A stretch of DNA of 56,336 nucleotides, filler included, from Dugesia japonica (lineage: Eukaryota): NCBI GenBank assembly GCA_001938525.1. It is 5 parts of 5 records of this genome, joined end to end, with 100 filler letters (N's around TTAATTAATTAA, not from the genome) between each part and the next. Parts side by side here need not be neighbours in the genome. Positions count along the whole stretch, not along the records: positions 23,219 to 33,165 come from MQRL01559042.1; 4 more parts are not named here. One strand, given 5' to 3'. The translations under genes were made by a program, and so were the position numbers. The notes beneath the pieces were generated by a model. It saw nothing but the letters and a program-made list of their open reading frames with translations, made no database searches and was not told where the DNA came from. This document shows, piece after piece, positions 16,045 through 56,230 of this stretch. The stretch's first letter is position 1. Each line of letters starts with the position of its first letter.

Positions 16045-17705
16045 CTTATTTTGAAAAATGCGTTAAGATATTGATATTAGTTCTTTGCGTACAAATACGA
16101 GAGGTTTAATTTGAAATTGAATAAAAAAGGTTAACAAAGTGAATCGAATGTTTATGAGGTGTTGTAGGTATTAAAATATACGAAATAATTGCGATGTTGA
16201 ATTGTCAATGGTTAATGGAGCTGATTAAAAAAGGAAAATAATATATTATATTGGAAATAAAAATTGGTATGCTTAAGAAAAGGTTTTTAAACGAGGAAAC
16301 AGATATCATTGATCTTTTTGGAATATACTTCATACAAAGAAATCTTTGTTTTATAAACTTTAGACAATTTATAAAAGATGGATAATTACATTAACTATAC
16401 ATTTTAAAACGTATTTTGAGTTTATGTATACATTTTTTATGAGTGATGTTTGTTTGTAATGAGATAAGTATGTAAATGAGATTCAAATCGATTATATTTA
16501 AATTAATTCAAAACGAATTTTACAAAAAACTTTTACTATAATAAAATTTGAAAAATAAAAATTTATAATTATGAATTTATGTATTTTAAAATGTTTGATT
16601 TAGTAACTGTGAAAGTCTACTAGCTTGTATTTGAAAGAAAAAAACAAGTTGATATATACAACTACCGTTTAATAGATTGCAAGAATGAAAGTAAGGGGCC
16701 GTCCATAAAGTACGTCACGCTCAGAAGAGGGGGGGTCTTAGAAAGTGTGACAGTTTGTGACACGGAGGGAGGAGGACCAAGATCATATGCGACGTCACAC
16801 ATTNNNNNNNNNNNNNNNNNNNNNNNNNNNNNNNNNNNNNNNNNNNNNNNNNNCTTATTTTGAAACATGCGTTAAGATATTGATATTAGTTCTTTGCGTA
16901 CAAATACGAGAGGTTTAATTTGAAATGGAATAAAAAAGGTTAACAAAGTGAATCAAATGTTTATGAGGTGTTGTAGGTATTAAAATATACGAAATAATTG
17001 CGATGTTGAATTGTCAATAGTTAATGGAGCTGATTAAAAAAGGAAAATAATATATTATATTGGATATAAAAATTGGTATGCTTAAGAAAAGGTTTTTTAA
17101 CGAGGAAACAGATATCATTGATCTTTTAGAGAAATGTATCAACACTATCAGTTCTAATTAAATGGTTTTTATTGTAATATTTTGGTTTGTTCTAATTCTT
17201 TGTGTTATTAATTTATTTCGGTAGGTTTTTGGAATATACTTCATACAAAGAAATCTTTGTTTTATAAACTTTAGACAATTTATAAAAGATGTATAATTAC
17301 ATTAACTATACATTTTAAAACGTATTTTGAGTTTATGTATACATTTTTATGAGTGATGTTTGTTTGTAATAAGTATGTAAATGAGATTCAAATCGATTAT
17401 ATTTAAATTAATTCAAAACGAATTTTACAAAAAACTTTTACTAAAATAAAATTTGAAAAATAAAAATTTATAATTATGAATTTATGTATTTTAAAATGTT
17501 TGATTTAGTAATTGTGAAAGTCTACTAGCTTGTATTTGAAAGAAAAAAACAAGTTGATATATACAACTACCGTTTAATAGACTGCAAGAATGAAAGTAAG
17601 GGGCCGTCCATAAAGTACGTCACGCTCAGAAGAGGGGGGTCTTAGAAAGTGTGACAGTTTGTGACACGGAGGGAGGAGGACCAAGATCATATGCGACGTC
17701 ACANA
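16045..17705. repeat. Near-identical ~760/850-bp tandem duplication around a gap in the tubby intron
   Basis: 16045-16803 matches 16854-17705; the second copy has an extra ~100 bp at ~17128-17228. Confidence 0.85.
16695..16803 (+). mobile_element. MITE terminus, PIF/Harbinger-like (second copy at ~17600-17705)
   Basis: GC-richer island starting taa|ggggccgtccataaagtacgtcacgc, a TIR style and TAA flank typical of PIF/Harbinger MITEs. No partner TIR seen. Confidence 0.45.
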
Positions 17706-20579: not shown

Positions 20580-21530
20580 CATCAAATCAATTTTGGTTTG
20601 TTTTGGCTTATTCTGGTCAATTTTGGTCTATTTTTGAACAATTCTGGTCACTATTGGGTGATTTTGGTAAGAAATTTCCTCGATATGGTCGGTCTTAGGT
20701 GATTTGGTTGATAATTATCAATTATAATTTGCTGTTTGGTAAATTTTGGATAATTTTGGTAAGAAATTTGCTCAACATGGTCGATATGGTTGATAATTAT
20801 CAATTATAATTTGCTGTTTGGTAAATTTTGGAAAATTTTGGTAAGAAATTTGCTCAACATGGTCAATTTTGATTGAATTTATGGATTTTGTTAAGATTTT
20901 CAAGTTTTTAAATTTAAGAAAAATTGGAGGAAAAGGGTTTTTGTTAAAATATTTTAAAAGTAATTCAAATTTTTATGGGAATCCGGGTGACCAACCATAA
21001 TTTCGAAAATTTTTTTATCGAGATTTTTCATCAGTTGTAAATTTTTTTCAAATCGTTTTTTTCTTAAAATTTGAAATTATCATGCCTTTTCGATAGAGAA
21101 TTTTTTGATGATAATTTTTGTCAAAACCTAAAATCGCCAAATTTTATCCTGGATGAAATAAATGAAATTTTATCTCGAAAAATCTCAAATTTTNNNNNNN
21201 NNNNNNNNNNNNNNNNNNNNNNNNNNNNNNNNNNNNNNNNNNNAAATTTAAGAAAAATTGGAGGAAAAGGGTTTTTGTTAAAATATTTTAAAAGTAATTA
21301 AAATTTTTATGGGAATCCGGGTGACAACCATAAATTCGAAAATTTTTGTATCGAGATTTTTCATCAGTTGTAAAATTTTTTCAAATCGTTTTTTTCTTAA
21401 AATTTGAAATTATCATGCCTTTTCGATAGAGAATTTTTTGCTGATAATTTTGGTCAAAACCTAAAATCGCCAAATTTTATCCTGGATGAAATAAATGAAA
21501 TTTTATCTCGAAAAATCTCAAATTTTAAAT
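20580..21530. repeat. Short ATTTTGGT-type repeats followed by a ~285-bp tandem duplication around a gap
   Basis: ~65-bp unit duplicated at 20700-20870; 20910-21193 matches 21244-21530. Confidence 0.75.
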
Positions 21531-25353: not shown

Positions 25354-25668
25354 ATGGAGAAAAGATATTATGCAGATGAAGTCACCAATGTGAGAGTAGA
25401 TTTAGATGTTCCAAATCTGCGGATCGAAATCATGGAAGCAAATTTACAGCTTCTCACGACCCAAAGGGATCGGCTAATGGCGGTTATCGTGGACACCGAG
25501 TCGGAAACATCTTTGTTAGATAACCATCAACCAGAATTCGATATACAATGCAGTTTTTTGGGAAATGCCATGTTGGAATCGCCGGCTGAAGAGGAAGAAT
25601 TAACAATTGTGAGAGATTTGATGGGCTTAAGCGCGTTTATTACAAATCCATCTGTAGATAAAAAATAA
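25354..25668 (+). CDS. Hypothetical acidic protein (104 aa), unknown family, converging on the Polinton module
   Basis: Open frame with protein-like composition and higher GC than the background; no motif recognised. Confidence 0.3.
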   Translation: MEKRYYADEVTNVRVDLDVPNLRIEIMEANLQLLTTQRDRLMAVIVDTESETSLLDNHQPEFDIQCSFLGNAMLESPAEEEELTIVRDLMGLSAFITNPSVDKK

Positions 25669-25689
25669 AAACGTGAAAATTTGTTAATT

Positions 25690-25900
25690 GAGAGATTCTT
25701 TACTATCCTTATCAACTACCTTCACTTTATTATACAATAAAGTATCATTCAAATCCAAATATTCAGTTTGAGATCCATTATAAAAATCTCTACGTCATTT
25801 TGTGATTCAGAAATTGAATTCATATGAAAGACATTTTCAAAACTACCACTTTCAATTACAGCTTGTGAAGTTGATCAATAATTCAGTTTTATTGAATCAC
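25690..25900 (-). pseudogene. Polinton major capsid protein, N-terminal fragment (module B)
   Basis: SQAVIESGSFENVFHMNSISESQNDVE..NGSQTEYLDLNDTLLY..KVKVVDK is a clear paralog of the 28921-30116 N-terminus; frameshifted and truncated. Confidence 0.8.
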
Positions 25901-26341
25901 TTATCAAATATCGTTGCATGTCTTCTAATTCGTTTGTTTATATGTGATGCATGTGATTTCTTGCGTTTTTTATTAGTTGGTTCTGTTTTAGATTGATTTG
26001 TTAGCATATTAGTTATTTCAGATGGTGTTTGATTTGTTATAATTTGTGGTAATATACCAGCTACCTTTGGAATCATACTGGTAACTCCACTAGATAAGGA
26101 AAAAAACTACATTTCCAAGTTCAACTAATGCATTTGACTCCAATGTGGGTAGTATTTTCCCATCATTAGCTAGTACATATTGAGATGTTTTCATACTAAA
26201 AGAACCAATACGTCTAGGAATAGGTAAAGCAAATCTTTATATTGTTCATAACCAGCCAGATCCATACAGTTTTCCAAAAAAGTAAGTTAATTCTTCACCT
26301 GCTTGACTAGTCCTATACAATGATTCAATATCAGAGTTCAT
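25897..26341 (-). pseudogene. Polinton putative core (basic) protein between penton and major capsid (module B)
   Basis: MNSDIESLYRTSQAGEELTYFFGKLYGSGWL*TI*RFALPI...KKRKKSHASHINKRIRRHATIFDK*. The QxG..GxG..R..LP pattern, basic tail and position match the conserved Polinton gene upstream of the capsid. Confidence 0.6.
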
Positions 26342-26344
26342 TAT

Positions 26345-26786
26345 TAATGTTTCTAAAATGTAACGTTAAATGTGTTTTTTAATCTTCAACAAAGTTTATT
26401 AGTTTTCCACTATCATTACGTATATTGATTTCTATACTGTTTAAATATGATGAAGAAATAGGTAAATACATTGGATGATCAACAATTATTTGAACTANCT
26501 CATCATTCTCATGTTCTTCTATCCATATTGCTTTCAATAAAGGAACATTAACATCCGCTACAATTATAGGTTCAACAATACTGCAATAAATGAACATTTC
26601 ATTATAATACTTTAATATTTCCGTTTTGGCTGCACACAAATCTACATTACCACGAACAATATTTATAATAATTTCAAGTAAATTATCTATAACATATGGT
26701 GGGAATGATTGCAAAATTCTCGTTCTAAAAGGTTTTGATGATTTAATTAAAGCTGTAAAAAACGGAATGCTTCTTTGTAATTTCAT
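26345..26786 (-). pseudogene. Chimeric ORF: N-terminus of the conserved post-ATPase Polinton gene fused to the penton C-terminus (module B)
   Basis: The first ~60 aa (RTRILQS..IDNLLEIIINIVRGNVDL) resemble the small conserved Polinton ORF. The remainder, MFIYCSIVEPIIVADVNVPLLK..PMYLPI..IEINIRNDSGKLINF..KTHLTLHFR, is the penton C-terminus, paralogous to 30224-30540. Confidence 0.72.
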
Positions 26787-26833
26787 CTTTATTCATTATA
26801 ATAATACATACCATTAATTTGTTAATAATAATA

Positions 26834-27056
26834 TCTATTTTCTGTTTATTATTTTCAATTTTTTTCCACTTTTTTTGCAAGTTTTAAACATATTCAGTTG
26901 TTTCCTTTTATTTACTTGTTGCTTCCTATTTATATGATGTTTCTTATGCGAGTATTACTTCTTTTTTCCAAAATTTGTCTTCTCAAAAGATATTTTTTGA
27001 CGTTTAATAAGACCATCAGTTACTTGATCAACTAGAAACTCTTTTAATTTTGTCAT
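26834..27056 (-). pseudogene. Small Lys-rich ORF downstream of the ATPase
   Basis: MTKLKEFLVDQVTDGLIKRQKISFEKTNFGKKK*YSHKKHHINRKQQ...; one internal stop; same strand and tight packing as its neighbours. Confidence 0.35.
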
Positions 27057-27075
27057 TTTTTTATATTATGAAAAA

Positions 27076-27698
27076 TTACCTGTTTTGTTTATATACTGTG
27101 ATACCATAAGGGTTGAATATAACTGTTCTCACTCTATAATCATCTAGACATTGTTGTGTAAAGTCAAGAAATAGGTATCCATGTAGCTTTTCTGTTGCAT
27201 CTTGAAATGATTCAATAAGAAATTGTCTGTTATTTGGATATCCTTGTCTTACTAGAAAATTAACAACAGTTTGACCTCTAGGTTTTTTGAATAGAACCAA
27301 ATATTGTACGTTTAAATTAAGAGTTCTATGACTACTTCCTTGATGAAATAGTAATTTAAATAACAGTCACATTATGATGTCTCGATATTTTTGTGAATAA
27401 ATTATTGAAATCCTTTTCTTTGTTTGCCTCTTCATACCGATCATCAACAACAATAACATCACCTCGTCTTAATCTTTTGCTCCAATTAGAATCAAAACCA
27501 TTTATAATTTTCATTTCAATACTACAAAATTCAGATTTAGTCAGTTCATGCTCCACATCTGCACCCCTATGCTAGTATATGTTTTTTAAATTTTGACTTG
27601 AATAACTTTGATTTCAATAATTGACATACAAACAGTGTTTTACCGCCACCACTAGGTACAACAATTTGATAGACTGCATCATTTCTTAATTTCTCCAT
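27076..27698 (-). pseudogene. Polinton genome-packaging ATPase (A32/FtsK-HerA-like)
   Basis: Walker A VVPSGGGKT, Walker B VIVVDD, FTKISRHHN, HRTLNLNVQYLVLFKKPR, HGYLFLDF; frameshifted. Confidence 0.9.
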
Positions 27699-27724
27699 AT
27701 TTTTTTTAATTTATTTATAAATCA

Positions 27725-28237
27725 ATGCATTGTTTATATTTGTTTTATCGAATCAATTCAATTGATTCCATGAAAACCTCATTTTTCCCCATTAATTCAT
27801 TAATTATGATAACAAATATTAATTACAGAGGTGAAGCGTCTCAAGATGTAACAAAAGAAATGANNNNNNNNNNNNNNNNNNNNNNNNNNNNNNNNNNNNN
27901 NNNNNNNNNNNNNNNNNNNNNNNNNNNNNNNNNNNNNNNNNNNNNNNNNNNNNNNNNNNNNNNNNNCCTGGAACCACAAGATTTGAACCCTTATGATATC
28001 AAAAATTTACAATTACAATCGTTAACAATCGTCAAAAATACAGGAGTTTCAATTAGTTTGTATAAATTAGCGAGAATAGTCAACTGTTGGTTCGAACCCG
28101 AGTTATTTCCTGCTTTGAGACTGGTAAAATATGACCTTTTATGTGTAAATGTGTTCTCAACCGGAAAACAAGTAATACTTGCACCTAAAAATTTATATTT
28201 TCTAGGATATGTAAATAAACTTACTTCAAATTTATAA
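27725..28237 (+). CDS. TATA-binding protein (TBP)-like ORF, apparently intronless, divergent from the Polinton ATPase
   Basis: LQLQSLTIVKNTGVSISLYKLARIVNCWFEPELFPALRLVKYDLLCVNVFSTGKQVILAPK aligns by eye with the TBP repeat FKIQNMV...IRLEGL...YEPELFPGLIYR...LLIFVSGKVVLTGAK. The N-terminal ITNINYRG resembles the first strand of repeat 1; the rest of that repeat falls in the gap 27864-27966. Confidence 0.78.
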   Translation: MHCLYLFYRINSIDSMKTSFFPINSLIMITNINYRGEASQDVTKEMXXXXXXXXXXXXXXXXXXXXXXXXXXXXXXXXXXXLEPQDLNPYDIKNLQLQSLTIVKNTGVSISLYKLARIVNCWFEPELFPALRLVKYDLLCVNVFSTGKQVILAPKNLYFLGYVNKLTSNL

Positions 28238-28920
28238 AGTTTGATTGAAAAATCTAAGAAGTTAACATCATAGATTCAATACAAGTACAACTCAAGTACA
28301 ATTTATATAACAATTAAAATTTAGATATTTAAGTTTCAAATTATTAATATATTACGTTGCAGTCTTTTATTATAAATATATTTTGCATTTAATAATTATT
28401 TTACTTTTTAAAATGTCTTAAAATTCAGATTTTAAAATGAATTTAATTCCTGGTGAAGAAATTAAAGAAGAAGAAGTTTTTAAGAAAAAAAAGTAATATT
28501 TATTTTATTTTTAATATTATTAACATATTATTATTTTTTAGAGCATTTCTTTCTACGCAACAAGTCACTAGCTAGTCATTGGCAACACACATATTGGTAT
28601 AATTTAGAGATACGTATGGGTGTTGACTTTGACAGACTGATTTGGTGCTACTTTGCTCAAATGTTGGTTTATAAATGTTGGTTTTGTTTTGCAAATAAAT
28701 GTATTTAATTTTTTTAAAACCTTTTTAAATAAGTAAATACATACAAAAAATTATTTATTATTATTTTATTATTATTTTGTCTAATGGATACACCCCCAAC
28801 CATGACGATCCCATTTTGATCCAATTTGATTAATCTGAAAAGAACTAATAAAGTAAAATATTTAAATTAAATTAAGAACTTACTTCACAATTTTGATTAT
28901 TTGATTATATTAGATATTGT

Positions 28921-30116
28921 TTACAGTAGTACTGTTCTATTAGCATTTATTTGGATTTTGCTTTCAGATACTACATATATTATAACATATGTTGGCGCAG
29001 TCAAAGTTTTAGCAAACTTTATATCTAAACTCAAATTTTCTTGTTGAGGCTATTGCCTCTGATTAATATAGAAATCTGGAGCAGGTACATATGTAAAAAA
29101 CGGATATTTGCTTTTAAATTCTTCAAGTTTTATTCCACAATTAATATTCTTATCCAAATATCCCATATTTCTAACAACACTTTGCATATATGTTGTACTA
29201 TAATCATCGTTTTCNNNNNNNNNNNNNNNNNNNNNNNNNNNNNNNNNNNNNNNNNNNNNNNNNNNNNNNNNNNNNNNNNNNNNNNNNNNNNNNNNNNNNN
29301 NNNNNNNNNNNNNNNNNNNNNNNNNNNNNNNNNNNNNNNNNNNNNNNNNNNNNNNNNNNNNNNNNNNNNNNNNNNNNNNNNNNNNNNNNNNNNNNNNNNN
29401 NNNNNNNNNNNNNNNNNNNNAAACGCAACAATTTCCTACTTTCTTATCGGAGAAATTGCATTTTTTTATTTAATCCCAATTAATGAGCAGCCAATACTGA
29501 CGGTTCAACGCGTACACGTCTAATCATTAATTTTCCATCTAGCCATACATAGTTATGTTCATTGACTGCAGATTCCAAACAAATTTTATAAGTTGCTCTT
29601 TTCAATCGAATTTGAACATTGACACCAGGAATAAGATATTTTGGTTGATACATAAAATCTAATTTCAATGGATTTTTTAATAGAAGCTTTTCTATTTTCT
29701 TCTGATCTATACCCCATTGCTGTAAGACAAATATTCTTACTATTGCGATTATAATTCAATATAGTTTCAACCAATGCGTTTTGAATATAGGTTCCATTTC
29801 CACCTTCAATTTTGTAATTATTAAATGAAAGAATTACATCCTTAAAANGTGTATGCAACATATAGTTACTAGGAACTGCATCATGAGTGTTAGTCAAATC
29901 TTTTCCAGACTTATCAACTACCTTCAATTTTATATACAATAAAGTGTCATGCAAATCCAAATATTCAGTTTGAGATCCATTTATATAAAATTCTACATCG
30001 CTTTTTGGTTCATAAATTGAATTCATTGGAAAAACATCTTCAAATGCAGCATTTTCAATAACTGCTTGAGGTGATGGACGATCAAAAATGCATCACTCAG
30101 TTTTACCGCAAATCAT
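28921..30116 (-). pseudogene. Polinton major capsid protein (double jelly-roll, hexon-like), module A
   Basis: KTE*CIFDRPSPQAVIE, VEFYINGSQTEYLDLHDTLLYIKLKVV, PSNYMLHTxFKDVILSFN, ETILNY, LDFMYQPKYLIPGVNVQIRLKR, RRVRVEPSVLAAH, and C-terminal NLSLDIKFAKTLTAPTYVIIY..IQINANRTVLL*. Stops, frameshift and a gap. Confidence 0.9.
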
Positions 30117-30224
30117 TTTCAAATATTGTTCCATGTCCTCTCATTCGTTTGTTTATACATGTTGCTTTTGATTTCTACCTGCTTGGCTGTTACTGTACTA
30201 TGATATATTATTGGGATTAAACAT
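30117..30224 (-). pseudogene. Internally deleted core-protein gene (module A)
   Basis: MFNPNNIS*YSNSQAG is joined directly to ..INKRMRGHGTIF; both ends are paralogous to 25897-26341. Confidence 0.55.
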
Positions 30225-31312
30225 TAGTTTTTCTAAGATTTAAAGTTAAATGTGTTTTTGNATCTTTTGGAAACTTGATTAATTTCCCGTTATCATNACG
30301 AATATTANTTTGTATATTGTTTNTACATGTTGTTGCAATCGGTAAATACATTGGATTATCAACTATTATTTGTACTACTTCATCAGGTTTATGTTTTTCT
30401 ATTCATACCGATTTCAAAAGAGGAACTTTAATATCTCCTACAATTATAGGTTCAACAATACTACNNNNNNNNNNNNNNNNNNNNNNNNNNNNNNNNNNNN
30501 NNNNNNNNNNNNNNCAACAATACTACTATAGATGAACATTTGTTGATGTAACTTAATTATTTTCGGTTTTCTAATACCTTGCAATATAGCATCTTTTAAT
30601 TCTAAATGTGAATATTTTTGTTTATCTAATCCCAATGTTTTTGTCAAGACTTTATCAAATGTAACAGTTTTGATATCATTTCTTTGTGACATTTGAAATA
30701 GATTATTTGATTTGAGTCTAATTTTAAAAAATAGCTCAGAACCGCTTTCTGTTGAATATTTAGTTAATTCTTCAATTTCTGTTATGTATAATTCATCTTT
30801 CAACTGTAAAGTATGATAACTTACTTGAGTATATTCTATTTTTAATTTTACAAATTCTATTGGCGGATCTTCTTTAAATGCTGTATACAGAAAAGGAAAA
30901 TATCCGGGTTCCATTTGGTTAATCTTATATGAGAACCCTAATATTTTTCAATTATTTCATTTTCAAATATGGCAACATATGGATATTCACATTTAATAGT
31001 AAAATAACTACTAAACGCTATATAGACATTATTATTTGCATTTTTACTTACACTCAAGGATTGTTGTTTGTGATCAGTTGTAACAGTTATTTTATTTGAT
31101 ATATTTCTTGTAGACACGCATTGAACTTTATACTTGCTATATAATGGAAATGCTTGATATACAAAGGTAAAGTCCAACAATGCTACTTCCCAACTATCAT
31201 CCATATAAATCGGATTTTGAAGCTCCACAATGAATTTACTAGCATTATTATTCGGATAAATAAAATGACAGCTATTACTTGGTATGAGTGTATAGAAATT
31301 ATTTAATGTCAT
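30224..31312 (-). pseudogene. Polinton minor capsid (penton) protein, module A
   Basis: N-terminal FYTLIPSNS..YPNNNASKFIVELQNPIYMDDSWEVALLDF and C-terminal MFIYSSIVEPIIVGDIKVPLLK..PMYLPI..NIR.DNGKLIKF..THLTL flank a variable insert; frameshift near 30920. Confidence 0.88.
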
Positions 31313-32190
31313 TATTAACTAACTGTGATGCTAATATCCAAGTAGGNTTTTGATATCCATGCCATTTTACATAATATTGTTTATTCTTTTTTGTTCCTTT
31401 TGATTTTATTATTTTTTCGATTCTATATATAGTAGGAAGTAGAATGACATGGAATTCTTGCTCATAAAATTTTCCTAGAGATGCACTTATTTTTGAGATT
31501 CTAACATGTTCACCGACTTTATATTTTGGTTTCTTATTTGCTTTACTTTAATCACGCGATAGCCATAATTTTAGTTCATTGTTTCCACTTACATCAACAG
31601 GTCTTGTTCCATTTAAACCTTTATGACTATAATGATTATAACTATGAATAAAATTTGACAACATATTTATCCAGGTTTTATTGTTCGTATACACAAAGTA
31701 TTTTTTCAAAGCATATGTTAATGTTCGATTAAATCACTTAACATGTGCCGCTTTATACTGAGAGAATACACTATAACGATTTATTTTTAGATGTGATAAA
31801 AGATTTTTGACTTTAGAGTTGTAAGACTTCTTACCCAAATCTGTTTGTAAATTATCTGGATGTCCATCTTTGAATATTGATTTAATTGCTGGTTCCACAT
31901 CATTGGTAGATTTCGTTTTAACCGGAAAAGCTCTTGCAAATCGACCGAATACATCAATACATGTTAAAATATACTTGTATCCTTTATTTTTTTTGAATAC
32001 GGGATTATCTCCATCAAATCCATTTGCCATAAATCATCAATACCAAACGTTTTAAATGCTCTTGTTGGAAATCTTTTCAACATTGGTTGGTTCAAACTCT
32101 ATGCTAGTTGACCTGATAACCACGTTTTGGTCTTTGTTTTTGTTTTTTGTAATGCATTCACTATACGGTATTTGCAGTATGATATAAAAT
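31305..32190 (-). pseudogene. Polinton retroviral-like (rve) integrase with C-terminal chromodomain
   Basis: WLSGQLA*SLNQP..RFPTR..GIDDLWQMDL, GYKYILTCIDVFGRFARAFPVKTKS, LQTDLGK, FNRTL, HSYN, KYKVGEHVRISK, and chromodomain YRIEKIIKSK..QYYVKWHGY..TWI. Confidence 0.92.
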
Positions 32191-32519
32191 ATATTCGTTT
32201 TCTCAATCATTCGTTTTGATTATTATCATGTTTTGATTGGTATTTCTTTGTTAAAATAAAAATATAAAAATAATAAATAATATTAAAAATAAAAATACAA
32301 AACCATTGCAATTTAAACAAAGTATTTGCATCTTTTTGATTTTTTGAATTTAAATGGACAAGTTGTGTTACATAAAATTTGTATATAAAGCCATTCATTT
32401 TTTATATACAAAANNNNNNNNNNNNNNNNNNNNNNNNNNNNNNNNNNNNNNNNNNNNNNNNNNNNNNNNNNNNNNNNNNNNNNNNNNNNNNNNNNNNTTA
32501 TTATTATTATAGTTATTAT

Positions 32520-32753
32520 TTATTTTCAGATCTTGCAAGAAGAATAATAAATGAAATGCATCCAGAATGTGAAAGAAAATCAAAAGTGTTGGAAGAAAAT
32601 GAATATTGGGAATATGTTTTGGAAAAAGAATTGATCGATTTTATGGAGATCTTATTCTTTTTCGAAAACGAATTCAAAATAGCAAACCTATATGAAAACG
32701 ATCCCTGTTCATACTGGATAATGGAGAAAATTATTTGGGAAAGATTTCCATGA
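32520..32753 (+). CDS. Hypothetical exon or ORF fragment (acidic/aromatic), unknown
   Basis: Follows ttttcag and reads ARRIINEMHPECERKSKVLEENEYWEYVLEK...WERFP*; no recognised motif. Confidence 0.25.
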   Translation, partial: LFSDLARRIINEMHPECERKSKVLEENEYWEYVLEKELIDFMEILFFFENEFKIANLYENDPCSYWIMEKIIWERFP

Positions 32754-36979: not shown

Positions 36980-38295
36980 AAAATTTTTCAATTATTGAAA
37001 TGTTGTAAGAGCGGTACCTAATCCGAACTGTATGCGATCGAAACAAAATTGTTCTATTTGTGTGCTGAAAGCTATTTTAAATTTTGACTTCTCAGTTAGT
37101 TAAATTTGTAAATACGCCTATCCTAGATCGATTGATGAGCAAAACATAAAACTTTTTCGTGTATCCAAAAACAAAATTATATCTGGAATAGGAAATGAAT
37201 TTACCTAATTTAATTTTCTAAAATCAATGCACATTCTAAGAGAACCATCGTTTTTTGAAACAATCACTTGTGAAGAGCTCCATGAACTTTCAACAAGATT
37301 TTATGATATTTGCTGATAATATAGACTTTGCATCAATTCGTATATCTTGCCTGCTAAATGCATTGGTTGTCTTCTTGAATTTATCAATACGGGTTCTCCT
37401 TTAGTTTCTATGTTATACATTATCATTTTTGTTAAACATACATCAAATTTTGAATTCATAAATATGTGGTCATATCATTAATCTTATTTTCATCTCTCCA
37501 TCAATATTTGTCATATTTAGCTGCTATAACTTCATTGTGATCTTCTTAGGTTTTACATGGCTATGAATATTCATAATATTTATTTTTAATTGTTCTACAT
37601 ATTTATCAGAATTTTTAATGATTTTTGTTTCCCTTCTTCCAACATTCCACACATTGATTCTAGGTTTCCGCCCAAATAATATTTCATACGAAGTGTACTT
37701 AGTAATTTTTTGTGTTGTTGTTTGTACGCCATTTTCTATTATTGGTAGCACCGTGCTCCAATCTTGAATCTACTTGTCTACTAATATTGCACTAATCATA
37801 GGTTTGGTGGTTCTAAATAATCTTTCTACTTATCCGTTTCCATGAGGATAATGAGATGAAAATGTTTTCACGATTCCCAATTGCTTCAAATATTTCTGAA
37901 ATGTACCTGAACTAAAATTACTAAAACAATATGAGTGAATTCTACTAGGTATTCAAAACTTGGATATCCAATGTATCCAAGGAGCTTCTGATAAATCTTA
38001 AGTGGTTATTGTTGGCAATGAAATTAAAAATATAAACTTTGAAAAAATACACAACTCCAAAAATATATTTATAACCATATTGCGTTGATTTAAATGGTCC
38101 TGTAATATCTATTGTAATACTTCGAAATGATTCTTTTTTGGATATATTCTGTAATGGTGCTTTAATTCTTCCATTAATATATTTTTATGTGCATTTTAAT
38201 ATTTAGATTTTGATAGTGTTTCTCTTATGTTTTGGTCTATACACGGCCAACTCTTGTTAGTTTCTCTACACCTGGATGCCCCAATAAATTTTGAT
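36980..38295 (-). mobile_element. Degraded Gypsy-type pol fragment with integrase upstream of reverse transcriptase
   Basis: Minus strand, in order: GHPGVEK, APLQ, TIDITGPF, NG*VERLFRT, YEILFGRKPR (integrase, ~38295-37620), then NIETKGEP, SSWSS, KNDGSLRMCIDFRKLN, FPIP, SSIDL (RT, ~37450-36980). Confidence 0.8.
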
Positions 38296-38670
38296 ATTTC
38301 CAAAGGAAATAATCTCTTTTATGTCGTGCCATAACATAGATCCTCTTTATACTATAATGAAACGATAGCGTATATCTTGAAATTGTTGGTAAACTCACTA
38401 TAACATTATAAGTTTCAAGAATTTNGGATTTTAATTCGTTTAGAGTCAATGAACAATTATTGTCTAGTTCTACCCGTATAAACTTTTTTCCTTTTCATTC
38501 TTAATTTTCTGCATTATATTGTCTGTAATTTCTTCTACTATTCTTTGTTTCTCAGTGAAGTGATACTGAATGATGTCTGAGTGATATTTTTTCAACCTAC
38601 TTCATTTTGATTTAACTCTTCTACATATCCGAGTATTGCTTCGGTATGTTGTGTTTTATACCCTCCTTGC
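38295..38670 (-). mobile_element. IS630/Tc1-like transposase N-terminal (HTH) fragment
   Basis: NCSLTLNELKS.ILETYNVIVSLPTISR..SFHYSIKRI resembles the second HTH of Tc1/IS630-like transposases. Confidence 0.5.
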
Positions 38671-38759
38671 AAAATGTGTTTTAATAAAACTAATTAATTT
38701 GTGTAGATTTTAAATAAATTTTAGTAAACTCAAGTTTCCTTATTTAATTACAATAACAT

Positions 38760-41700
38760 AGCGTCACGATCATTGCTAGAGGATCTTATCAACTGGTTAA
38801 ATGAAAAAAAGATGTTTTCGAAGAAATTTACAATAAGAGAAAATATTTCAAATCATATTACCGAATTCGAAAAATTTGCCGAAAAACAAAAATTTGGGAT
38901 CCAACACAACGCTCAGAGAAGTTATTGAAAAGTTTAGAAGAAGAAGCATTTTTTGAACTCCAATCAATTCCAGAGTTTAAATCTAATAAATCGAATGATG
39001 AATGGTTGAAAACAAAGTTATTTGAATTATATCAAATTAAGTCAACCAAGGTAATTAATATTTTATCCTTGAAGCAGGAAGATATGACTCTTAGACAGTA
39101 TATAATGATTATAATGATTATATATGCCAGATTATAATGAATATTTTAAAGAAAAGACTCTCTTATCAATATTTCTGAAAGGGTTAAATAATCGTTTGGC
39201 AGCCAGAGCCACGGAAATTATGAAACAAAGCACTCTGGAAGAAGCTTTAATTTTATGAAAAAGGAAGATAAAAATCGACATAATGATAAATTGCGAATTA
39301 TTAGCAATGATGTTAATACAGAAAAATGGCAAAAAATTAAAACGAAAAATTATTGAGCTTGAAAATCGTATAGAGTATTTATAAAGAAACCATGCAACAG
39401 ATTATCCAAAGGATGCAGTTCAAAGGTTCAAACAAGAATTAAAATGTTATAATTGTAACGGGAAATGTCATATTTCTCGAAATTGTAACAAACTATTGCT
39501 TTGCAGGAACTGTAACAAATCTGGACATATAACTCGATTTCGTCAAGCAGCAAAAAGATCTAATAATCAGAAAGAAGCTTTTCGAAGACTAGAAAAAGCA
39601 AATGACAATTCTAATATTGGATATGATGAAGCCAGTTGTGATTATAAAAAGGAATCTGAAGATAATGAATTTTTCAAAATNNNNNNNNNNNNNNNGAAAC
39701 AAAACGAAATATCAACTACTCAGACGATATTATTAAGTTAGATGAATATATTCGAGGTTCAAGACACAAATCTCCAATTCATAAAGGACAAAGAACAATG
39801 ATATCAGATACAAAAATTGAACCCACAGCAAACAAACCAATAATCAAATGCAAAGTAGAACAAGAAGAAGAGAAAATCTTTATAGATTATGGAGCAGAGT
39901 CCAGCATCATGGATTTCAAACTATTTCATATGATCATAGAAAAAGAAATCATCAAGCTGCTTCGATCAAACAAGACCTTAACATGTGCAAACAGCTCACC
40001 AATTAAGGTAATTGGTTATTGTTTTATAAAAATGACTATAGGAAATAAAACTAATAGAATTAGAATTATTATTGTAGATAAATTTTTCCCAAAAGTCATA
40101 ATAGGAATAAGAGATATGAAAAAAATGAACATTTCGATTTTACCAAAACTAGACTGTGTAACTGTAGAGGAAATAAAAGTACCTTTCATGTCCAAAATAA
40201 GAGAGTTAGCGGAAAACTAAAGAGCACTGTATCCGAGGGTTCAGATAATAGTGCTAGAAGTATGAAGGGGGCTCAAATGTGTACAGTAAGAGTTATATTA
40301 GAAAATACAGTTACAATTTTGAGAAAAGAAGAGCTAACTGCTTTAGCGAGTGTAGAAAGCAATATTTTTTGTTTGAAAGAAGTTTTATTTAGTCATTATA
40401 AAGACAAGTTAGCAAATATAGGGGTTTTAGCTGCGAAAAATGTGTCTTATGTTAGAGAAACTGGTAAAATCCCAGAAAGAATAATTAACTTAAAAAATAA
40501 AGATATTACAATGTTTATAAATACGAGATTAGGCTGTATTGAGATTGTAGATGATACAAAGGATAACATTAGAAATTATAATAGAATATATCAAGATACC
40601 GGGATGAGGCATATTCAATGCATAATGGATACGATTTTGAACAGACCTTCAGTTGATATCGATAAAAAAGCGACAAATACTGTAATAAAGATAATTACAA
40701 AATTTAAAGATATATTTAGGTAATTATGATATCGGACATTGTCCACTTTTAAAACACGAAATAGATGTTATTAATCCTTAACCTATTGCTCAAACATTAC
40801 GAAGAGCTCCCTTTCATTTAGAGAGTAAAATCGACGAGATGATCAAAGAGCTTGAACAAAACTGAATCATATGCGAGAGTTCAAGACCGTGGTCTTCACC
40901 TATTGTGGTTGTTCAAAAGAAATCTGGAGACATTAGACTATCTATAGACTATAAGAAATTAAACTCAGTTACTAATAGACCTATACATTCTATTCCAGAT
41001 AACTAACAGTTCTTCGATTCACTTGTGGAATCAAGATTCTTTAGTGCACTTGATTTATCTAGTGGTTATTACAATATAGAAATAAAGGACAAAGACAGAG
41101 AAAAAACAGCTTTTGCTACACAAAAAAGGTCAGTATAAATTTATTTGCATGCCTTTTGGACTGTGCGGAGCACCAGAAACTTTTCAAAGATTAATGCATT
41201 TAGTTCCCAAAGAAGAAAATTTTGATAAATGCTTCATATATCTCGATGATATTTTGATTTTCAGATAAAGCATAGAGGAACACAATGAAAGACTGAAAAT
41301 GGTATTAGAGAAGATATGGCAGTCAGGAGTTAAGTTATCTTCAAAGAAATGCGTTTTTTTGAAAACTTCAGTTAAATATTTGGGTCAAGCGAAGGAGTAA
41401 CAACTGATCCAGAAAAAATTAATGCAGTAAAGAATTGTAGTATTCCTAAGACAAATGAAGAATTATCAAGTTTTTTAGGGTTTTGCAATTATTACAGAAG
41501 TTTTATTTGGGGATATGCCAAAATCTTTAAACCTCTAGAAGTTTTGTAAAGAGATGCGAACATCACGAAAAACGGAAAAGGGTAGATTTAACATGGAAGA
41601 ATTTCATAAGGAATCTTTTGAAAGTCTGAAATATGCTCTCACAAGTGCACCAGTTTTATCCTTTTCAAATAGGGATGATATTTTCTGATTGGATACAGAT

Positions 41701-50099: not shown

Positions 50100-50780
50100 A
50101 CTTCAAAGAGGAGAGTCTATTCGATATTTAAGTGATAAAACATATTTATCTAAACCTCAAAGAGGGAGTCTTTGTGGTATTTACATGATAAAATATATCT
50201 ATCAAAAAACTTCAAAGAGGAGAATCTTTGCGATATTTACATGATAAAACATATCTATTAAAAACATTTGATAGCGGGGAGTCTTTGTGATTTTTACGTG
50301 TTAAAATATAATTAGCTAGGTAATTGTTTCTAAAAACATATTAGTAGTGACAATTTTCAATAAAAATATCATAAGCGATGTAATGTTTAATAACAAATCT
50401 CATTAATGATGCAATTTTAAATAAAAAATCTCATTAGTGATGCAATTTTTCTACAAAAAACATATTAGTATTGCAATATTTTCATAAAACACATTAGTAG
50501 TGACAATTTATTTTATAAAAAACATATTAACTGATAGTTTTTCTTTACAAAATAATAAAAACAAAGAACATTTTTTCAAAGAAAAATCATAAATTCATGG
50601 AATCTTCACATATATAACTAATTAGTGTATATAAAAAAACTTATAAGTAAATATTTTGATATCTATAAAGGGATTATGAGTGTATAGAGTTGACGAGTAG
50701 ATACTGTTTCAAAAAAAGAAGCTTTAAGATTGATTGGAGGGTTTAAGAAGGAAGAGGTTAAAAGAAAGGAAGATGGTTTA
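50100..50780 (+). repeat. Left arm of an imperfect inverted repeat, with ~55-bp and ~30-bp tandem subrepeats
   Basis: cttcaaagagg..tct..g.gatattta units (about 4) and cattagt.(g/a)tg.caatt units. The arm from ~50190 is the reverse complement of ~55730-56230. Confidence 0.8.
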
Positions 50781-51793
50781 TGAATTCATAATTTACATAA
50801 TAACAGCATATTATTTGCATAGTTACTTTGTATTATTTTACATAACAACAGAGCAATATAAGGTTTATTTGCATAGCTATCGTGTATTATTTTTGTATTA
50901 ATTACATAGTTATCCTATGTGGGAAGGATATGTCTTTAGATTATTGTTATATTTTAGCGATTTTAGTTGGACAGTCGTGATATTATTGTAGGTCATTGGT
51001 CGGTTTTAATATTTTGCAATGATATTTGTTAAATATATTGGACAGTCCTAAATTATATTTAATTAAAAATATCCTAGGCATGTGATTTTCAGTGAATGTG
51101 TTTTACATTCCTATTGCGTCCCTATTGCATAAATAATGTATTTATAATTAAAAAAAAGCTGTTTACAATAATAAACATGTATTATTATTATTTCCCTTTT
51201 CTTCTTCGTTAATATATATTTGTAATAAAAATAAACTTAATAAATAATAAAAAANNNNNNNNNNNNNNNNNNNNNNNNNNNNNNNNNNNNNNNNNNNNNN
51301 NNNNNNNNNNNNNNNNNNNNNNNNNNNNNNNNNNNNNNNNNNNNNNNNNNNNNNNNNNNNNNNNNNNNNNNNNNNNNNNNNNNNNNNNNNNNNNNNNNNN
51401 NNNNNNNNNNNNNNNNNNNNNNNNNNNNNNNNNNNNNNNNNNNNNNNNNNNNNNNNNNNNNNNNNNNNNNNNNNNNNNNNNNNNNNNNNNNNNNNNNNNN
51501 NNNNNNNNNNNATTGTTATTTTTACCTTCCCATACGCGCTTATCATCTATATTAGTCAGTGCCATTTTGTTCAACTTAATGCTATACAATTGATGATTTT
51601 TAGTGGTTATCCGAAATTGTTGCACCAAGACCGATTTGTTCTCATTATAACAGTCAAGGTAAAACTCATGAGAAATTTTAGNNNNNNNNNNNNNNNNNNN
51701 NNNNNNNNNNNNNNNNNNNNNNNNNNNNNNNACAATCTAAATAAAACATGATTAAAATAACATTTATAAACAAATAAATAAATACCATTGTTC

Positions 51794-54700
51794 TTAACCA
51801 ATCTTGATTGAATGAACAGTTTTATGAGAAAAATTACTTAATACTATAATGACCATATTGTTATTTTTACCTTCCCATACGCGCTTATCATCTATATTAG
51901 TCAGTGCCATTTTGTTCAACTTAATGCTATACAATTGATGATTTTTAGTGGTTATCCGAAATTGTTGCACCAAGACCGATTTGTTCTCATTATAACAGTC
52001 AAGGTAAAACTCATGAGAAATTTTAGTTTTCTTCAATTTTTTGACTTTGGATCTCATGATGTTCTTATTTCCAATCAGGCTATAGCATTTCGGTCTCAAA
52101 ATACCCATTCTTGATANTTCTTCTCTTTATTCTCATCTTTGAATTTTCCTATAACTCAGTTCATGCTGTTACTATAAAGGGTATGATCTTTATCATAATT
52201 CAAAGTATCAAGTAACTGATTTCTCACCATACTTACTGTTATTGTTTCTAATTTGTTATTTTCTATTTCTAGAAAAACTGTATCGCCGGCTACAATATTA
52301 ATTTTACATTTAAATTCCTTCATATACTTATCCAACTTAATGTACTGAAGTTTATACATTCTCAATTTTGAGAGGTTAAATACAGTTTGTAACATGTAGC
52401 TCGGATGATCTAAACAAACTATGTCCTTATTGAGAAGAACAGCTATTAAATAATCATCAATGTTTGTTGTTTTCTTTAATCCGGCTTTTGATGTATATGT
52501 AATCTGCTTCTTTGCTGAATTACATAGGCGCAGATTGATCCTGTTCTTAAGATTCTCCACTGATTTTCCACATAAACTGTTATTAAACAGTTTACATTAA
52601 TTTTTCTCTAATTCCGCAACATAATTTGATCTGAGAATTGTGTTGGTGTTGATATAATTATAGAAAATTGAAACCTAGCTAAATTTAACTCCATGATGAA
52701 CCTCTATTACTTTAACTTATAAACTTAAATACATCTGCAGCAATCTCCAGTGCACTACGCAATTGTTTTTGGAGTAATGCGTTAATATTAATTTCTTCAC
52801 TTTACAACCTGGAGCGCTGCATTCTCACATTCTTCTAATATAATCCATCATAGATCCATTTAAAATTTGCAAAGGGAAACTTTTGACTAAGTGCCTGAAC
52901 ATATAAATTATTTATATCTATATACAACAAGTCAATATTTTCACTAGTGGCAACATGGTGCTTGTTAACGAATCTTAACCCTCCTCTTTTACCTCCTTCA
53001 AAAAAGGTATACATATCGTTATCTTGGAGCAACTCAATTGGTTTTTCTAATGACATCAACGCAGATGCCTATGATATTCCATTTATTCCAAATAAAATTC
53101 AACAGCTCCAAATTAATGTGTGCTAAAGACTTTGAAAGGAATTGCTGGAAAAAATCAACTAATAAATACACATCTAGCTTTAAATATAACATCATATAGT
53201 CCAGCAAATTTGTACAGTTAAATATATATCCCACATTGATAATGCTTTCACATACTCTTCCCTACTAACTTCTCCAATTTTGGCGGCATTTGCATTGTTT
53301 CTTCCCGAACATGTAAGCTCGTAGCAAAAATGTACGGAAATATTTCCTTTGACTTGTAAATAATCTGATTCTTAAACTCCTCTGCAGTCAAAGGTGTCGC
53401 TTTTAAGAATTGGACAGCAGAGTCCAATGAGTAATTTATGAACTAATAGCTGTCGATGAATTTAATTGTTGTTTGATTTCTCCGTACAATTAAACATATA
53501 AATTTTTCTGATGTTGTTGGGATGCAGGATATTGACCAATTCTTGAACTTGTTAATACCATACTTAAAGATATGATGAAGATCATATCCTTGTAAATTAT
53601 GAAAGACCACTGATAGCTGAATATGCAATTGTCTACTTAAATTGCATTGGTTGCATGCTGCTCCTCTATATTTCCCTGTGAAATGGTTATGGTCACGAAC
53701 AGGATCTCTTATTTCCTTCTTACATAAGTAACAAATTTTTTCAGCTTTGAATTCATTATCTTGTTTCACTTTTATTATAATTTTCTTTTTTTCTTTTTTT
53801 TGATAATAAGGAAACACAATCTTTTCGCTTATTTCCTTCACAGCCCTATAAAACTTATACACACAATGATCTCCAATAAACTGTCTTTATTTTGTTTTGT
53901 TGGTAAAATTATTTACCAGCAGCAGACAAGTTATTGTTTTCGAATAATCCTTAAAAATCAAGTTTTTCTCAGATGGCATCGTATACATGGTGGTACCTGT
54001 TTGGAAATTTTCGCAAATTGGTTCATGTTTCTCATATGCTACTTCATTTTTGAACCCGTTGAGACAGTTAGGACACCATGTTGATTGAATGCGAACACTT
54101 TGTCCTTTATTATTCCTGTTCATTAGACGATTTAGATTTAGTAATGCGGTGTAATGAAATCTGTTGTTATTTTCCAGTAATAACAGATATATTTTATCTC
54201 CATCTATTACTTTTGATCAGTGTATTATATCCAAATTTGGATGTTTCATGATTAATTCATCTGCTTCATCCTGATTGTTGATTCCATGATAGGACATTGA
54301 TGGATAGTCCTGGATTATTCTTCATCAAATGTAAGCTCCGACATGCATTGTTTATATAATGTTACGCAGTTTTTATTCCTTCCTCTATCTTGATCACTTT
54401 TGGTGATAGAAAAAATACTTTAAATAAAACAGTAATTATCATCATTTTTGATGTTTACAATTGCTTCTTTCTTTTTTAAATTTTCCGGTGTTTGAATATA
54501 ACTTTATCCAGAAAGTCGACAAATATTTGCCACCTTTGTGATCTTGAATTTAATTTCAAGTATTATGTTCAACATCCAACTGGAGCCTAGTTTGCTTCTT
54601 ATTGTTATTTTCTCATTCAATTGGTTTATCCCATCTTCAAAAACGATAACAGTTAATGCAACGGCTTTATTTGATATCCTTCAGGTTTTAAACTCCACTT

Positions 54701-54900
54701 CGTCTCCACCAGCAGTTGTTGTTAACCATTTGAATTCTACATTTATTCCAAATTGAATTTTAAGCTGTTTCATTTCTTNTAATGACTCGAAAACTTTGCT
54801 TATTATTGTATCTGCTAAAATAATTTCACGACAATTCCAACTTGAGACATCTTTTTTAAAACACGATAACAACGATTTAAATTTGTTTCTATTGTCACAC
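51794..54900 (-). pseudogene. Polinton-type protein-primed family B DNA polymerase (pPolB) with endonuclease VII-like insertion
   Basis: AIVNIKNDDNYCF; CPNCLNGF; CYLCK..VRDHNHFTGKYRGAACNQCNL; ExoII VVFHNLQGYDLH; KFIDSY; GIFPY-like; ExoIII YLKLDVYLL; RGG..LLYIDINNLY (motif A); L.NNSLCGKSVEN (motif B); VAGDT (motif C); GKFKDE; LRPKCYS; ALTNIDDKR. Many frameshifts. Confidence 0.93.
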
Positions 54901-54950
54901 CATCATCACAAGCATTAATGGTCCATCAAATTGAATATTTTCGTCTGATT

Positions 54951-55800
54951 TCAGGAACTGTTGTAATACAATGTTCTTGTCCCCAAATTCGTCAAATAGT
55001 TTGAAGCAATTCGATTTCTCTTCATCTGGTTTATTTTTAATTGTTTCTTNNNNNNNNNNNNNNNNNNNNNNNNNNNNNNNNNNNNNNNNNNNNNNNNNNT
55101 CTTCAATGATATTCTTGATTGTATTAACTTCATGTTCTTCTAACTTAATTATCTTATTTACTGATCATTCATTACTTTAACCCTCTTCCTTTTTAAACCC
55201 TCTTCTTTCTTTAACCCTCCTCTTGTCTTTGACTTTTTTGTTCCAAAAAACCAATGATCATAGTATCTTTCCATAATAATATGGCAGTCACCATTGTGAC
55301 TTACACTAGCGCAATGGTTTCTGTACATGTTGCAAGTATCTGCATTCCAAATCATTCTTGGTCCAATTTTTTCTGTTAATCTCTACTTTGAACTTAATAT
55401 TTATTATTTTTTATAGTTAAAATAAATTTTTTTTCAGTTTGTTTATGTATATTGACCATTTTAAAAACCCTTTTTTGTTTCTTTTACCCATTTCCTTTCT
55501 TTTACCCTATCTTTTTCTTAAACTCTCTTTTCCTTTTTAAACCCTCTTTTTCTTTTACGCACATCTTTCTTTTATCCTTTTTCTTTCTTAAACCCTCTTC
55601 TTCTTTTTTACCGTCTTTCTTCTTAAACCTTCTTTGCTTATTAAAGCCCTCATCCTTTCTTTTACTATTTCTTTTCTTAAACCCTCTTTCTTTCTTTTAC
55701 CCTCTTTATTTCTTTTACCCTTTTTCTTCTTAAACCCTCTTTTCCTTCTTTAACTCTCTTCCTTTTAAACCCTCTCCACTCCTCAACCCTATACACTCAT
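54951..55800 (-). pseudogene. Lys/Glu/Gly-rich low-complexity coding-like region upstream of pPolB
   Basis: Repeated aaaccctcttt units read K-E-G-L-K on the minus strand (cf. ORF 55158-55355, GGLKKEEGLKRKR); an ATG at 55800 lies inside the right inverted repeat. Confidence 0.35.
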
Positions 55801-56230
55801 AATCCCTTTAAAGATATGAAAATATTTAAATATAAGTTTTTTTATAGTCTTATTAGTTATATATGGGAATGTTCCATGAATTTATGATTTTTATGAAAAA
55901 AAGTTCTATGATTTTATCATTTTGTAAAGAAACGTTCTCAGCTAATATGTTTTTTTATAAAACAAATTGTCACTACTAATATGTTTTTTGAAAAACTTGC
56001 AACACTAATGAGATTTTTTATTATACGTTGCAACGTTTTCTATTTAAAATTGCATCGCTAATGAGATTTTTAAAGAAAATTGTCACTAGTAATATGTTGT
56101 TTTTATAGAAAATTACCTACCTAAGATGTTTTTTTTATCATTTTGTAAAGAAAAGTTTTAATTTGAATATTTATTCATGTACATATCCCAAAGACTTCCT
56201 TCTTTTAAGTTTTTTTGATAGATATCTACC
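55730..56230 (-). repeat. Right arm of the imperfect inverted repeat
   Basis: Its reverse complement contains aaaaatcataaattcatggaa, aaagggattatgagtgtatag and attagtagtgacaattt, collinear with 50190-50780. Confidence 0.8.

Follow-up and report, generated by a model that had tools for sequence, protein, structure and literature searches.

A reduced, element-borne TATA-binding protein of Polinton-type elements and a matching candidate late-promoter box

Does a Polinton-type mobile element carry a TATA-binding protein (TBP) gene of its own, and if so, which genes would that protein serve? The question is raised by a locus in a 56,336-nucleotide stretch of Dugesia japonica DNA (the window, analysed as a whole), in which a first-pass annotation had proposed a TBP-like gene beside a packaging ATPase gene. 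The timing and switching of Polinton capsid genes are not addressed in the Polinton literature that we searched, and virion formation by these elements is a long-standing question. We report a reduced, element-borne TBP together with a matching candidate late-promoter box; viral TBPs as such were already known.

The reading frame 27710-28237 on the plus strand is open throughout, with a 103-N assembly gap included, and comprises two parts.

27806..28237, plus strand: mini-TBP ORF; the 143 codons of the assembly comprise 19 sequenced, 35 inside the gap 27864-27966 and a further 89 sequenced
27725..27805, plus strand: in-frame upstream extension, not conserved and probably non-coding, overlapping the ATPase promoter region

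No intron is seen in the ORF, and its stop codon occupies 28235-28237. Because relatives begin at the equivalent of 27806, with MITNINYRG as the family N-terminus, this is the likely start; the ATG at 27725 is in frame but not conserved among relatives, and was rejected. The first-pass annotation had placed the start close beside that of the ATPase on the opposite strand, and it was right about the strands, the distance from 27806 to the ATPase ATG at 27698 being 107 bp. The saddle motif to which it had drawn attention (FEPELFPAL...VNVFSTGKQVIL) is present in the open frame, as are both C-lobe intercalating Phe positions, and the profile and structure comparisons that it had recommended point the same way. 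The 89 aa 3' of the gap match the Pfam TBP profile PF00352 with 23.6 bits (E 4.6e-5; cut-off 22.9) and match TBPs in the PDB with a best E of 1.6e-6. An AlphaFold2 model of this part (pLDDT 87) has TBPs as its five best matches among 48,161 chains, and it superposes on a TBP lobe with Z 10.7 and an rmsd of 1.4 A over 71 residues, as against Z 6.0 for the best unrelated fold; it covers the C-lobe only, most of the N-lobe lying inside the assembly gap. The TFIIB-type C-lobe glutamates are present, and of the 19 conserved columns that can be tested in the ORF, 2 are off the family consensus (0 or 1 in 126 of the 175 members). Its identity is ~20% to cellular TBP in structural alignments and 40-53% to Polinton-linked relatives. 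No longer homologues of the 89-aa part were found at E 0.01, which is weak evidence. The window ORF is a genuine TBP-fold, element-encoded TBP homologue.

Polinton core genes (ATPase, rve integrase, protease and capsid) are present around the ORF as broken copies, together with smaller genes that are named here by their clusters (C4, C19). Relatives from a metagenome scan, described below, carry L numbers.

27082..27698, minus strand: packaging ATPase (A32/FtsK type), 54-70% identical to the L051 and L053 ATPases; two frameshifts and stops
26607..26792, minus strand: small conserved gene (C4) that follows the ATPase in relatives, 47% identical to L051
26352..26639, minus strand: putative minor capsid (penton) C-terminal fragment, left copy, named from gene order, no profile match
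26105..26341, minus strand: small gene (C19) between penton and major capsid, 52% identical to L051; stops
25696..25779, minus strand: left major capsid remnant, 63-64% identical to relatives over 27-28 aa
28773..28814, minus strand: adenain-type protease, weak remnant, 64% over 14 aa (E 0.006); the family is Peptidase_C5
28924..30116, minus strand: major capsid, right copy, 46-55% identical to L051; frameshifted, with a 206-N gap
30229..31318, minus strand: putative penton gene, right copy, broken
31317..32122, minus strand: rve integrase with chromodomain, broken (Pfam rve E 2e-7, Chromo E 2.5e-6), 77% identical to L053 over 43 aa

The two capsid modules between which the TBP gene had been said to sit are two copies with internal deletions, their DNA being 77-78% alike. 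The left copy retains the ATPase, C4, the penton end, C19 and the capsid remnant, and its C4 gene runs into the penton fragment via the deletion that removed the integrase; the right copy retains the integrase, penton, capsid and protease remnant. The module is a fragment to which neither a polymerase nor terminal repeats are linked: in the window, pPolB and inverted repeats occur only in a separate element 18 kb away, and the repeats there show no match to the module.

At least seven positions of the ORF depart in the window copy from a letter common to nearly all other copies, which fits private decay. Judged by its sequence, the window copy looks decayed and is probably inactive. It had been remarked earlier that the ORF, unlike its neighbours, shows no internal stop; this is true but not significant, since a hand count gives ~16 breaks in ~1,400 codons of the neighbours, a rate that predicts ~1.2 for the 108 sequenced codons, with a P of ~0.3 for none. 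The idea of a specially preserved copy is thus dropped, and we regard the window copy as a decayed witness and not as the best specimen. In one DNA run, 20,667 contigs fall on 25500-30260 and at least 105 lie at one TBP position, at a depth like that of the ATPase, so that many copies in the organism carry the gene, as the first-pass annotation needed them to. One contig of ~86% identity spans 27612-27829, and the head-to-head TBP/ATPase junction is therefore not unique to the window copy; upstream of 27795, 21 RNA reads from other copies part from the window sequence, and other layouts therefore occur as well. Three RNA runs gave 38, 1,212 and 106 reads, almost all from other copies and only 6 at 99% identity or above; their strand bias is the same over the TBP gene and the opposite-strand ATPase, and so is no sign for or against expression of the TBP gene.

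The window ORF belongs to a family of proteins of ~150-175 aa, which we call mini-TBPs. A phmmer search with the window part against 1.84 billion representatives gave 114 matches at E ≤0.001, most of them of 100-200 aa with 36-58% identity and the N-terminus N-I-N-Y-(R/K)-G, and a profile search gave 177 proteins at E ≤1e-10. The matches listed (120 of the 177) come from ENA, JGI, Logan and MGnify and none from NCBI or UniRef, and the same was true of 20 clusters checked. Median length over 175 members is 158 aa. Forty-two of 44 relatives scanned pass the PF00352 cut-off, the two failures being unrelated repeat proteins. INPHARED had no match for TBP or capsid. IMG/VR contained no family member when searched with the window part and alignment A1, and with alignment A2 it yielded one unrelated full-length TBP (L081), which lies outside the mini-TBP group in the tree; no Polinton ATPase or capsid loci were found there either. 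GTDB genomes gave one partial match (L082), at the end of a 3.4-kb MAG contig. Matches in the ESM Atlas are all TBP clusters, but their recognition values are below its threshold, and we treat them as a lead only.

The metagenome scan returned 167 matching stretches, of which the best 80 were taken, L081 from IMG/VR being left out; all loci were thus picked via the TBP gene. The homologues neighbour Polinton genes, which the first-pass annotation had named as a point to check: relatives sit among ATPase, integrase, capsid, protease and polymerase genes, and a Polinton core gene is present in 42 of these best 80 of 167 loci and in 29 of the 36 that reach 3 kb (one locus was counted by its penton label alone). 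The usual order is TBP, ATPase, small gene, integrase, penton, small gene, capsid, protease. The divergent arrangement of TBP gene and ATPase seen in the window recurs in L045 and L053, there with at least one gene between; in L004, L021, L055-L057, L059 and L077 the TBP gene is linked to pPolB. It occurs in PF03175-positive, PLA2-bearing elements and in PF03175-negative ones. The labels for integrase (rve), protease (Peptidase_C5), PLA2 and pPolB rest on Pfam. A Pox_A32 match was obtained for 9 of 18 members of the ATPase family, and the major capsid family has weak matches (Capsid_N 2/10, DJR-like 1/10), its alignment giving no PDB match and no useful PHROG match. What we call penton is presumably the minor capsid gene, a label taken from gene order, without a profile match. 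No TFIIB was detected among 72 neighbouring ORFs scanned in Pfam (including 50 of the 104 listed). We infer the label 'animal-type' for these Polintons from the element type described in the accessible part of Starrett 2021.

Related elements also carry cargo genes for a ubiquitin-conjugating enzyme, RING fingers and KilA-N proteins (L021:225-719, L051:1710-2168, L057:13315-13893, L058:218-1216). Another gene, cluster C2 (L005:5870-6352 and 23 other loci), encodes ~160 aa with no Pfam match, often adjoins the TBP gene and is sometimes doubled; at a guess, it could correspond to 'MAEL' in Starrett's maps.

A tree with 132 rows was built from the window ORF, 57 locus proteins and 74 archaeal, eukaryotic and other TBPs. 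The window ORF and its 57 relatives fall on one side of a long branch with support 100, in keeping with the earlier judgement that the ORF is too diverged to be the host TBP, and the window ORF nests in a 17-row subgroup (support 95). The six eukaryotic TBPs included were recognised by motif and none is a known animal one; given the long branch, which drew a warning, and rows that include neither an animal TBP nor an animal TRF, the tree does not name the donor of the mini-TBP. A second divergent group of full-length TBPs (P0085, P0243 and P0249, 172-192 aa) sits on its own long branch, outside the cellular TBP groups and the mini-TBPs. An origin of the window gene as a retrocopy of a host TBP/TRF, or as a passenger that is there by chance, would be in line with the mosaic make-up of the locus, two deleted copies in an assembly with gaps, and with a tree without animal TBP or TRF. 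We nevertheless consider it extremely improbable: the ORF is 40-53% identical to Polinton-linked relatives but ~20% to cellular TBP, its place in the tree is inside the mini-TBP group, one DNA run covers it with at least 105 contigs, and L045 and L053 share the divergent layout. The host retrocopy in particular is largely refuted by Polinton linkage, many copies and tree position.

The dN/dS comparison among copies that had been suggested for this gene gave a median of 0.21 for TBP (59 pairs, not independent of one another), as against 0.10 for the ATPase (12 pairs), and the mini-TBP family is under purifying selection. Across 20 elements TBP and ATPase distances are correlated (Mantel rho 0.61, 0 of 2,000 permutations), and the mini-TBP gene behaves as an old, inherited gene of these elements.

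The anatomy of the family is best seen in relative P0003, whose model (pLDDT 97) is a two-lobed saddle with 145 of 148 residues aligned to human TBP 164-337 (Z 13.5, rmsd 2.6 A; Foldseek E 1e-9). A single-lobe protein was rejected, as both lobes are present in the family. The first TBP repeat exists in shortened form and is mostly covered by the 103-N gap in the window. A spacing of ~66 aa, as against ~90 in canonical TBP, had been noted earlier; the shortening of the N-lobe holds, while the lobe-to-lobe median in the family is 79 aa, not ~66, compared with 87-91 in four full-length TBPs. In the window as assembled, the first conserved Asn and the last Phe lie 113 aa apart; the family median is 117.

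Yeast-numbered equivalents were set from alignments and from Table 1 of PMC12529657. Over 175 members, E186, E188, F190, P191, F207, F116 and N69 are retained at 88-100%. Among these are the TFIIB-site glutamates (E186 96% E, E188 99% E), which in the available part of PMC7221094 are the C-lobe residues that bind TFIIB, and the intercalating phenylalanines F190 (100%), F207 (100%) and F116 (95%). Three of the four intercalating Phe of canonical TBP are thus kept; the F99 position aligns to Pro in 94%, with uncertain register, and replacement of this one N-lobe Phe may, as far as sequence can tell, weaken DNA binding. The DNA face is changed at V122 (R 97%), T124 (M 99%), L205 (N 99%) and I194 (R 92%), and further at V203 (C 95%), V71 (N 83%), N159 (S 89%) and V161 (T 83%). 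I194, V203 and L205 are the three positions whose mutation alters TBP DNA specificity in the accessible part of PMC1636458, and the mini-TBP may be a natural altered-specificity TBP. The equivalent of the residue that clashes with C at box position 7 stays aliphatic (I 41%, L 33%, V 21%).

In the window's subgroup the N-lobe linker has a median of 21 aa and is neutral and proline-containing (33 of 36 parsed), whereas the same stretch in six eukaryotic TBPs is 33-34 aa long with a net charge of +3 to +5. The P0003 model has no helix in this stretch. In PLA2-class relatives the linker is acidic and longer, with a median of 28.5 aa over the 12 of 21 that could be parsed. By alignment and model, the basic helix H2 appears to be absent in the window's subgroup, a loss that is not family-wide. 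The basic N-lobe H2 cluster of cellular TBP binds TFIIA, TAF1, Brf1/2 and BTAF1/Mot1 (PMC7221094, accessible part).

The packaging and virion genes of these elements share a strand-specific sequence box, YATAAAC. For the box test the 80 loci were reduced to 61 groups and the 120 nt upstream of the first Met were searched, with a background of 5.7%. YATAAAC was found upstream of the ATPase in 23/24 groups, C4 in 16/18, the major capsid gene in 9/10, PLA2 in 9/12, integrase in 11/16, penton in 10/13, C19 in 6/6, protease in 4/6 and C2 in 12/16; it was found upstream of TBP in 1/59, C3 in 1/13, C10 in 0/5, C13 in 1/8 and pPolB in 0/2. Pooled over ATPase, C4, capsid and PLA2 the count is 57/64 against a shuffle mean of 2.8, and dinucleotide shuffles of the ATPase upstream regions gave a mean of 1.1 and a maximum of 4 of 24. 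Its reverse complement was absent upstream, save in two TBP upstream regions. Many of the sites lie 30-50 nt before the ATG, and both element classes carry the box (ATPase 13/13 and 10/11). TATAAA is followed by C at 66 of the 80 sites of virion genes, as against 2 of the 30 that belong to TBP and three genes nearby. Canonical TATAWAD stands upstream of 24/59 TBP genes, a modest excess (shuffle mean 13.9, maximum 20), and of C13 in 7/8. Several boxes lie inside coding DNA (for example in the ATPase 3' end, encoding Y/H-K-Q/R) and could partly reflect protein constraint; the boxes upstream of ATPase and PLA2 mostly do not. A further gene, encoding an LRR protein with a hydrophobic N-terminus (L039:1918-3327, L028, L042, L043, L048), is preceded by the box in 5/5 groups and so would be late-class cargo.

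In the window module six boxes lie on the virion-gene strand and none on the other, and the rest of the window has 17 and 17.

27732..27738, minus strand: TATAAAC, a candidate late promoter 40 nt before the ATPase ATG
27087..27093, minus strand: TATAAAC, inside the 3' end of the ATPase gene and before the small gene that follows
25936..25942, minus strand: TATAAAC, upstream of the left major capsid remnant
28667..28673, minus strand: TATAAAC, downstream of the protease remnant, where relatives have a C2-cluster gene; no ORF left
30151..30157, minus strand: TATAAAC, 41 nt upstream of the right major capsid ATG
30387-30393: CATAAAC, inside the right putative penton gene 30229..31318

The position of the boxes bears on a reading in which the mini-TBP is a structural DNA-bending or packaging aid that binds the box for replication or encapsidation. 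The gene does often lie just upstream of the packaging ATPase operon, but a strand-specific box ~30-50 nt upstream of many start codons is core-promoter-like and the TFIIB glutamates are kept, and we consider this function very unlikely. The first-pass annotation had offered two others, a factor that redirects Pol II to late capsid promoters and a decoy. A decoy or repressor would soak up TFIIB or NC2, or occupy TATA boxes, and so damp host or early viral transcription; near-invariant TFIIB-binding glutamates, a cut-down N-lobe and the seeming loss of one intercalating Phe would all suit it. Both lobes and three of four Phe are retained, however, the altered DNA face is strongly conserved, and a dedicated box marks the very genes that a late activator would be expected to serve, so that a decoy seems to us rather improbable and less likely than a late-gene activator.

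To the first of the two proposals, redirection of Pol II to late promoters, the YATAAAC box lends support at the level of inference, not of demonstration. We think it probable, going by sequence, that the mini-TBP is a late-gene factor that works via host TFIIB and Pol II and reads the element's own YATAAAC boxes. Once the element is activated, host TBP/TFIID would read the mini-TBP gene early, from an ordinary promoter. The mini-TBP would then bind the YATAAAC boxes, its changed DNA face preferring C at box position 7, and its kept glutamates would recruit host TFIIB, and hence Pol II, to the packaging and capsid genes, while loss of the basic helix H2 would free it from control by TAF1, TFIIA, Brf1 and BTAF1/Mot1. 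Packaging and virion genes would in this way be switched on as a class, an early-to-late switch without a viral RNA polymerase. A strand-specific box before virion genes that is near-absent before the TBP gene supports such a switch. The N-proximal lobe of TBP touches the 3' half of the box (accessible part of PMC1636458), which is where the box of the mini-TBP family differs. Several observations count against it: the position-7 contact residue is still aliphatic and host TBP can bind such a box, the helix loss is not family-wide (the PLA2-class linker being longer and acidic), and the window TBP gene has no TATA box at the usual distance, the nearest TATAAAT being at -90. All loci were picked via the TBP gene, and no Polinton without one turned up in IMG/VR or INPHARED for comparison, so the box may instead be a late promoter common to Polintons and served by another factor. 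The wider proposition, that animal-type Polintons of both polymerase classes make the early-to-late switch by one 150-aa orthogonal mini-TBP escaping host TBP regulators, we would put at an even chance.

We regard it as unlikely that host TBP/TFIID or another factor reads the box, with the mini-TBP serving as a non-specific booster, for example as a surrogate where host TBP is low. Cellular TBP tolerates C at position 7 by way of a Hoogsteen pair, which it needs there, and so would still be able to bind the box (PMC13566119, in an accessible passage that summarises Patikoglou 1999); the aliphatic position-7 contact residue also speaks for such a factor, and the box counts come from TBP-bearing loci only. 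A generic surrogate, on the other hand, would not need the near-invariant V122R, T124M, L205N, I194R and V71N, and the TBP gene itself is excluded from the box (1/59).

With cellular TBPs (eukaryotic TBP/TRF and archaeal TBP) the mini-TBPs share the two-lobed saddle, F190/P191/F207, E186/E188 and N69/F116, and their EPELFP stirrup is of eukaryotic type. They differ from them in their length of ~150 aa, with no N-terminal tail and a short N-lobe, in a polar DNA face, in an identity of ~20-25%, in being encoded by a mobile element, and in a Pro that apparently replaces F99.

Our best reading is that the mini-TBP works like the herpesvirus vTBP (ORF24/UL87/BcRF1), to judge by analogy, being far smaller and not a member of that group. 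The vTBP of KSHV, ORF24, is likewise a viral TBP mimic used without a viral RNA polymerase, it acts at a non-canonical TATA-like late box (TATT, where mini-TBP elements have the candidate box YATAAAC), and it has polar changes at the V122, T124 and L205 equivalents (PMC12529657, accessible part). According to the same source, ORF24, a multidomain protein of 752 aa, binds Pol II, works with other viral factors and is without the TFIIB glutamates. Its late-gene function is proven, that of the mini-TBP a predicted one. The mini-TBP differs in being a bare saddle, the whole model aligning to the TBP core, with the TFIIB glutamates kept. Beyond the fold we see no sign of common descent, BFVD matches being weak.

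Most Nucleocytoviricota and mirusviruses encode their own RNA polymerase. Their TBP-like proteins share with the mini-TBP a virus-encoded TBP fold and loss of the N-lobe regulatory signature, and many of these large viruses also encode TFIIB, with diverged TFIIB-binding positions (PMC7221094, accessible part). Their matches in BFVD are at least 169 aa long and at most 20% identical. In MELD viruses, a Polinton-like midsize virus group, a TBP-like gene is labelled (PMC8502044 Fig. 5; preprint 10.1101/697771, legends of Figs 5-6). There the 'TBP' is a legend label only, with no family, structure or promoter described in the accessible text of PMC8502044, and it may belong to the mini-TBP family. 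The earlier statement that TBP is undescribed in such elements was therefore partly wrong, given this Fig. 5 legend (Starrett 2021). The Fig. S2 maps of animal adintoviruses in Starrett 2021 have no TBP label in their legible text. With adintoviruses, Polintons and Mavericks the elements share an A32-type ATPase, an rve integrase with chromodomain, an adenain-type protease, a putative double jelly-roll capsid and, in related loci, pPolB. TATA or TBP does not occur in the main text of PMC11131425, PMC10748475, PMC8097293 and PMC11161782, nor in the supplements of the first two, and these four Polinton papers do not count TBP as a core gene. Among papers on Polintons, adintoviruses or Mavericks that also concern TBP, TATA or promoters, no such family or box is described in titles and the beginnings of abstracts, Repbase and subscription journals lying outside this scope.

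A mini-TBP and a shared box before packaging and virion genes make up a concrete, testable control circuit, and the box gives a new way to sort unidentified Polinton genes into early and late classes. As a natural TBP with a rewired DNA face and, in the window's subgroup, without the N-lobe regulatory helix, the protein tests what a TBP minimally needs. If the proposed switch is true, this would be a viral late-transcription system far smaller than the herpesvirus one and direct evidence of a regulated virion-making programme in these elements.

Other features of the window were noted in passing. An open stretch at 32498-32753 (plus strand, ~85 codons), upstream of the integrase, has no Pfam match and no same-strand match in the 80 loci, and may be another element gene. 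The separate Polinton-like element at ~50340-56100 (~5.8 kb) has nothing but a frameshifted pPolB, 32-56% identical to the L004 and L021 polymerases, flanked by inverted repeats of ~450 bp that are 77% alike; it looks like a deletion derivative that has no capsid genes, and in its left inverted repeat there is what we take to be an AGTAGT-type end motif. Two decayed LTR-retroelement-like regions (~7000-10150, minus strand; 37500-41000, plus strand) contain gag zinc knuckle, protease, RT and integrase-like pieces in their translations, the first with an integrase tblastn match. Fragments at 2244-2657 and 5864-6791 (plus strand) presumably represent mariner-type transposases. Direct duplications, 86-100% alike, at 16045-17639, 20911-21526 and 51512-52026 adjoin N gaps and are probably assembly artefacts.
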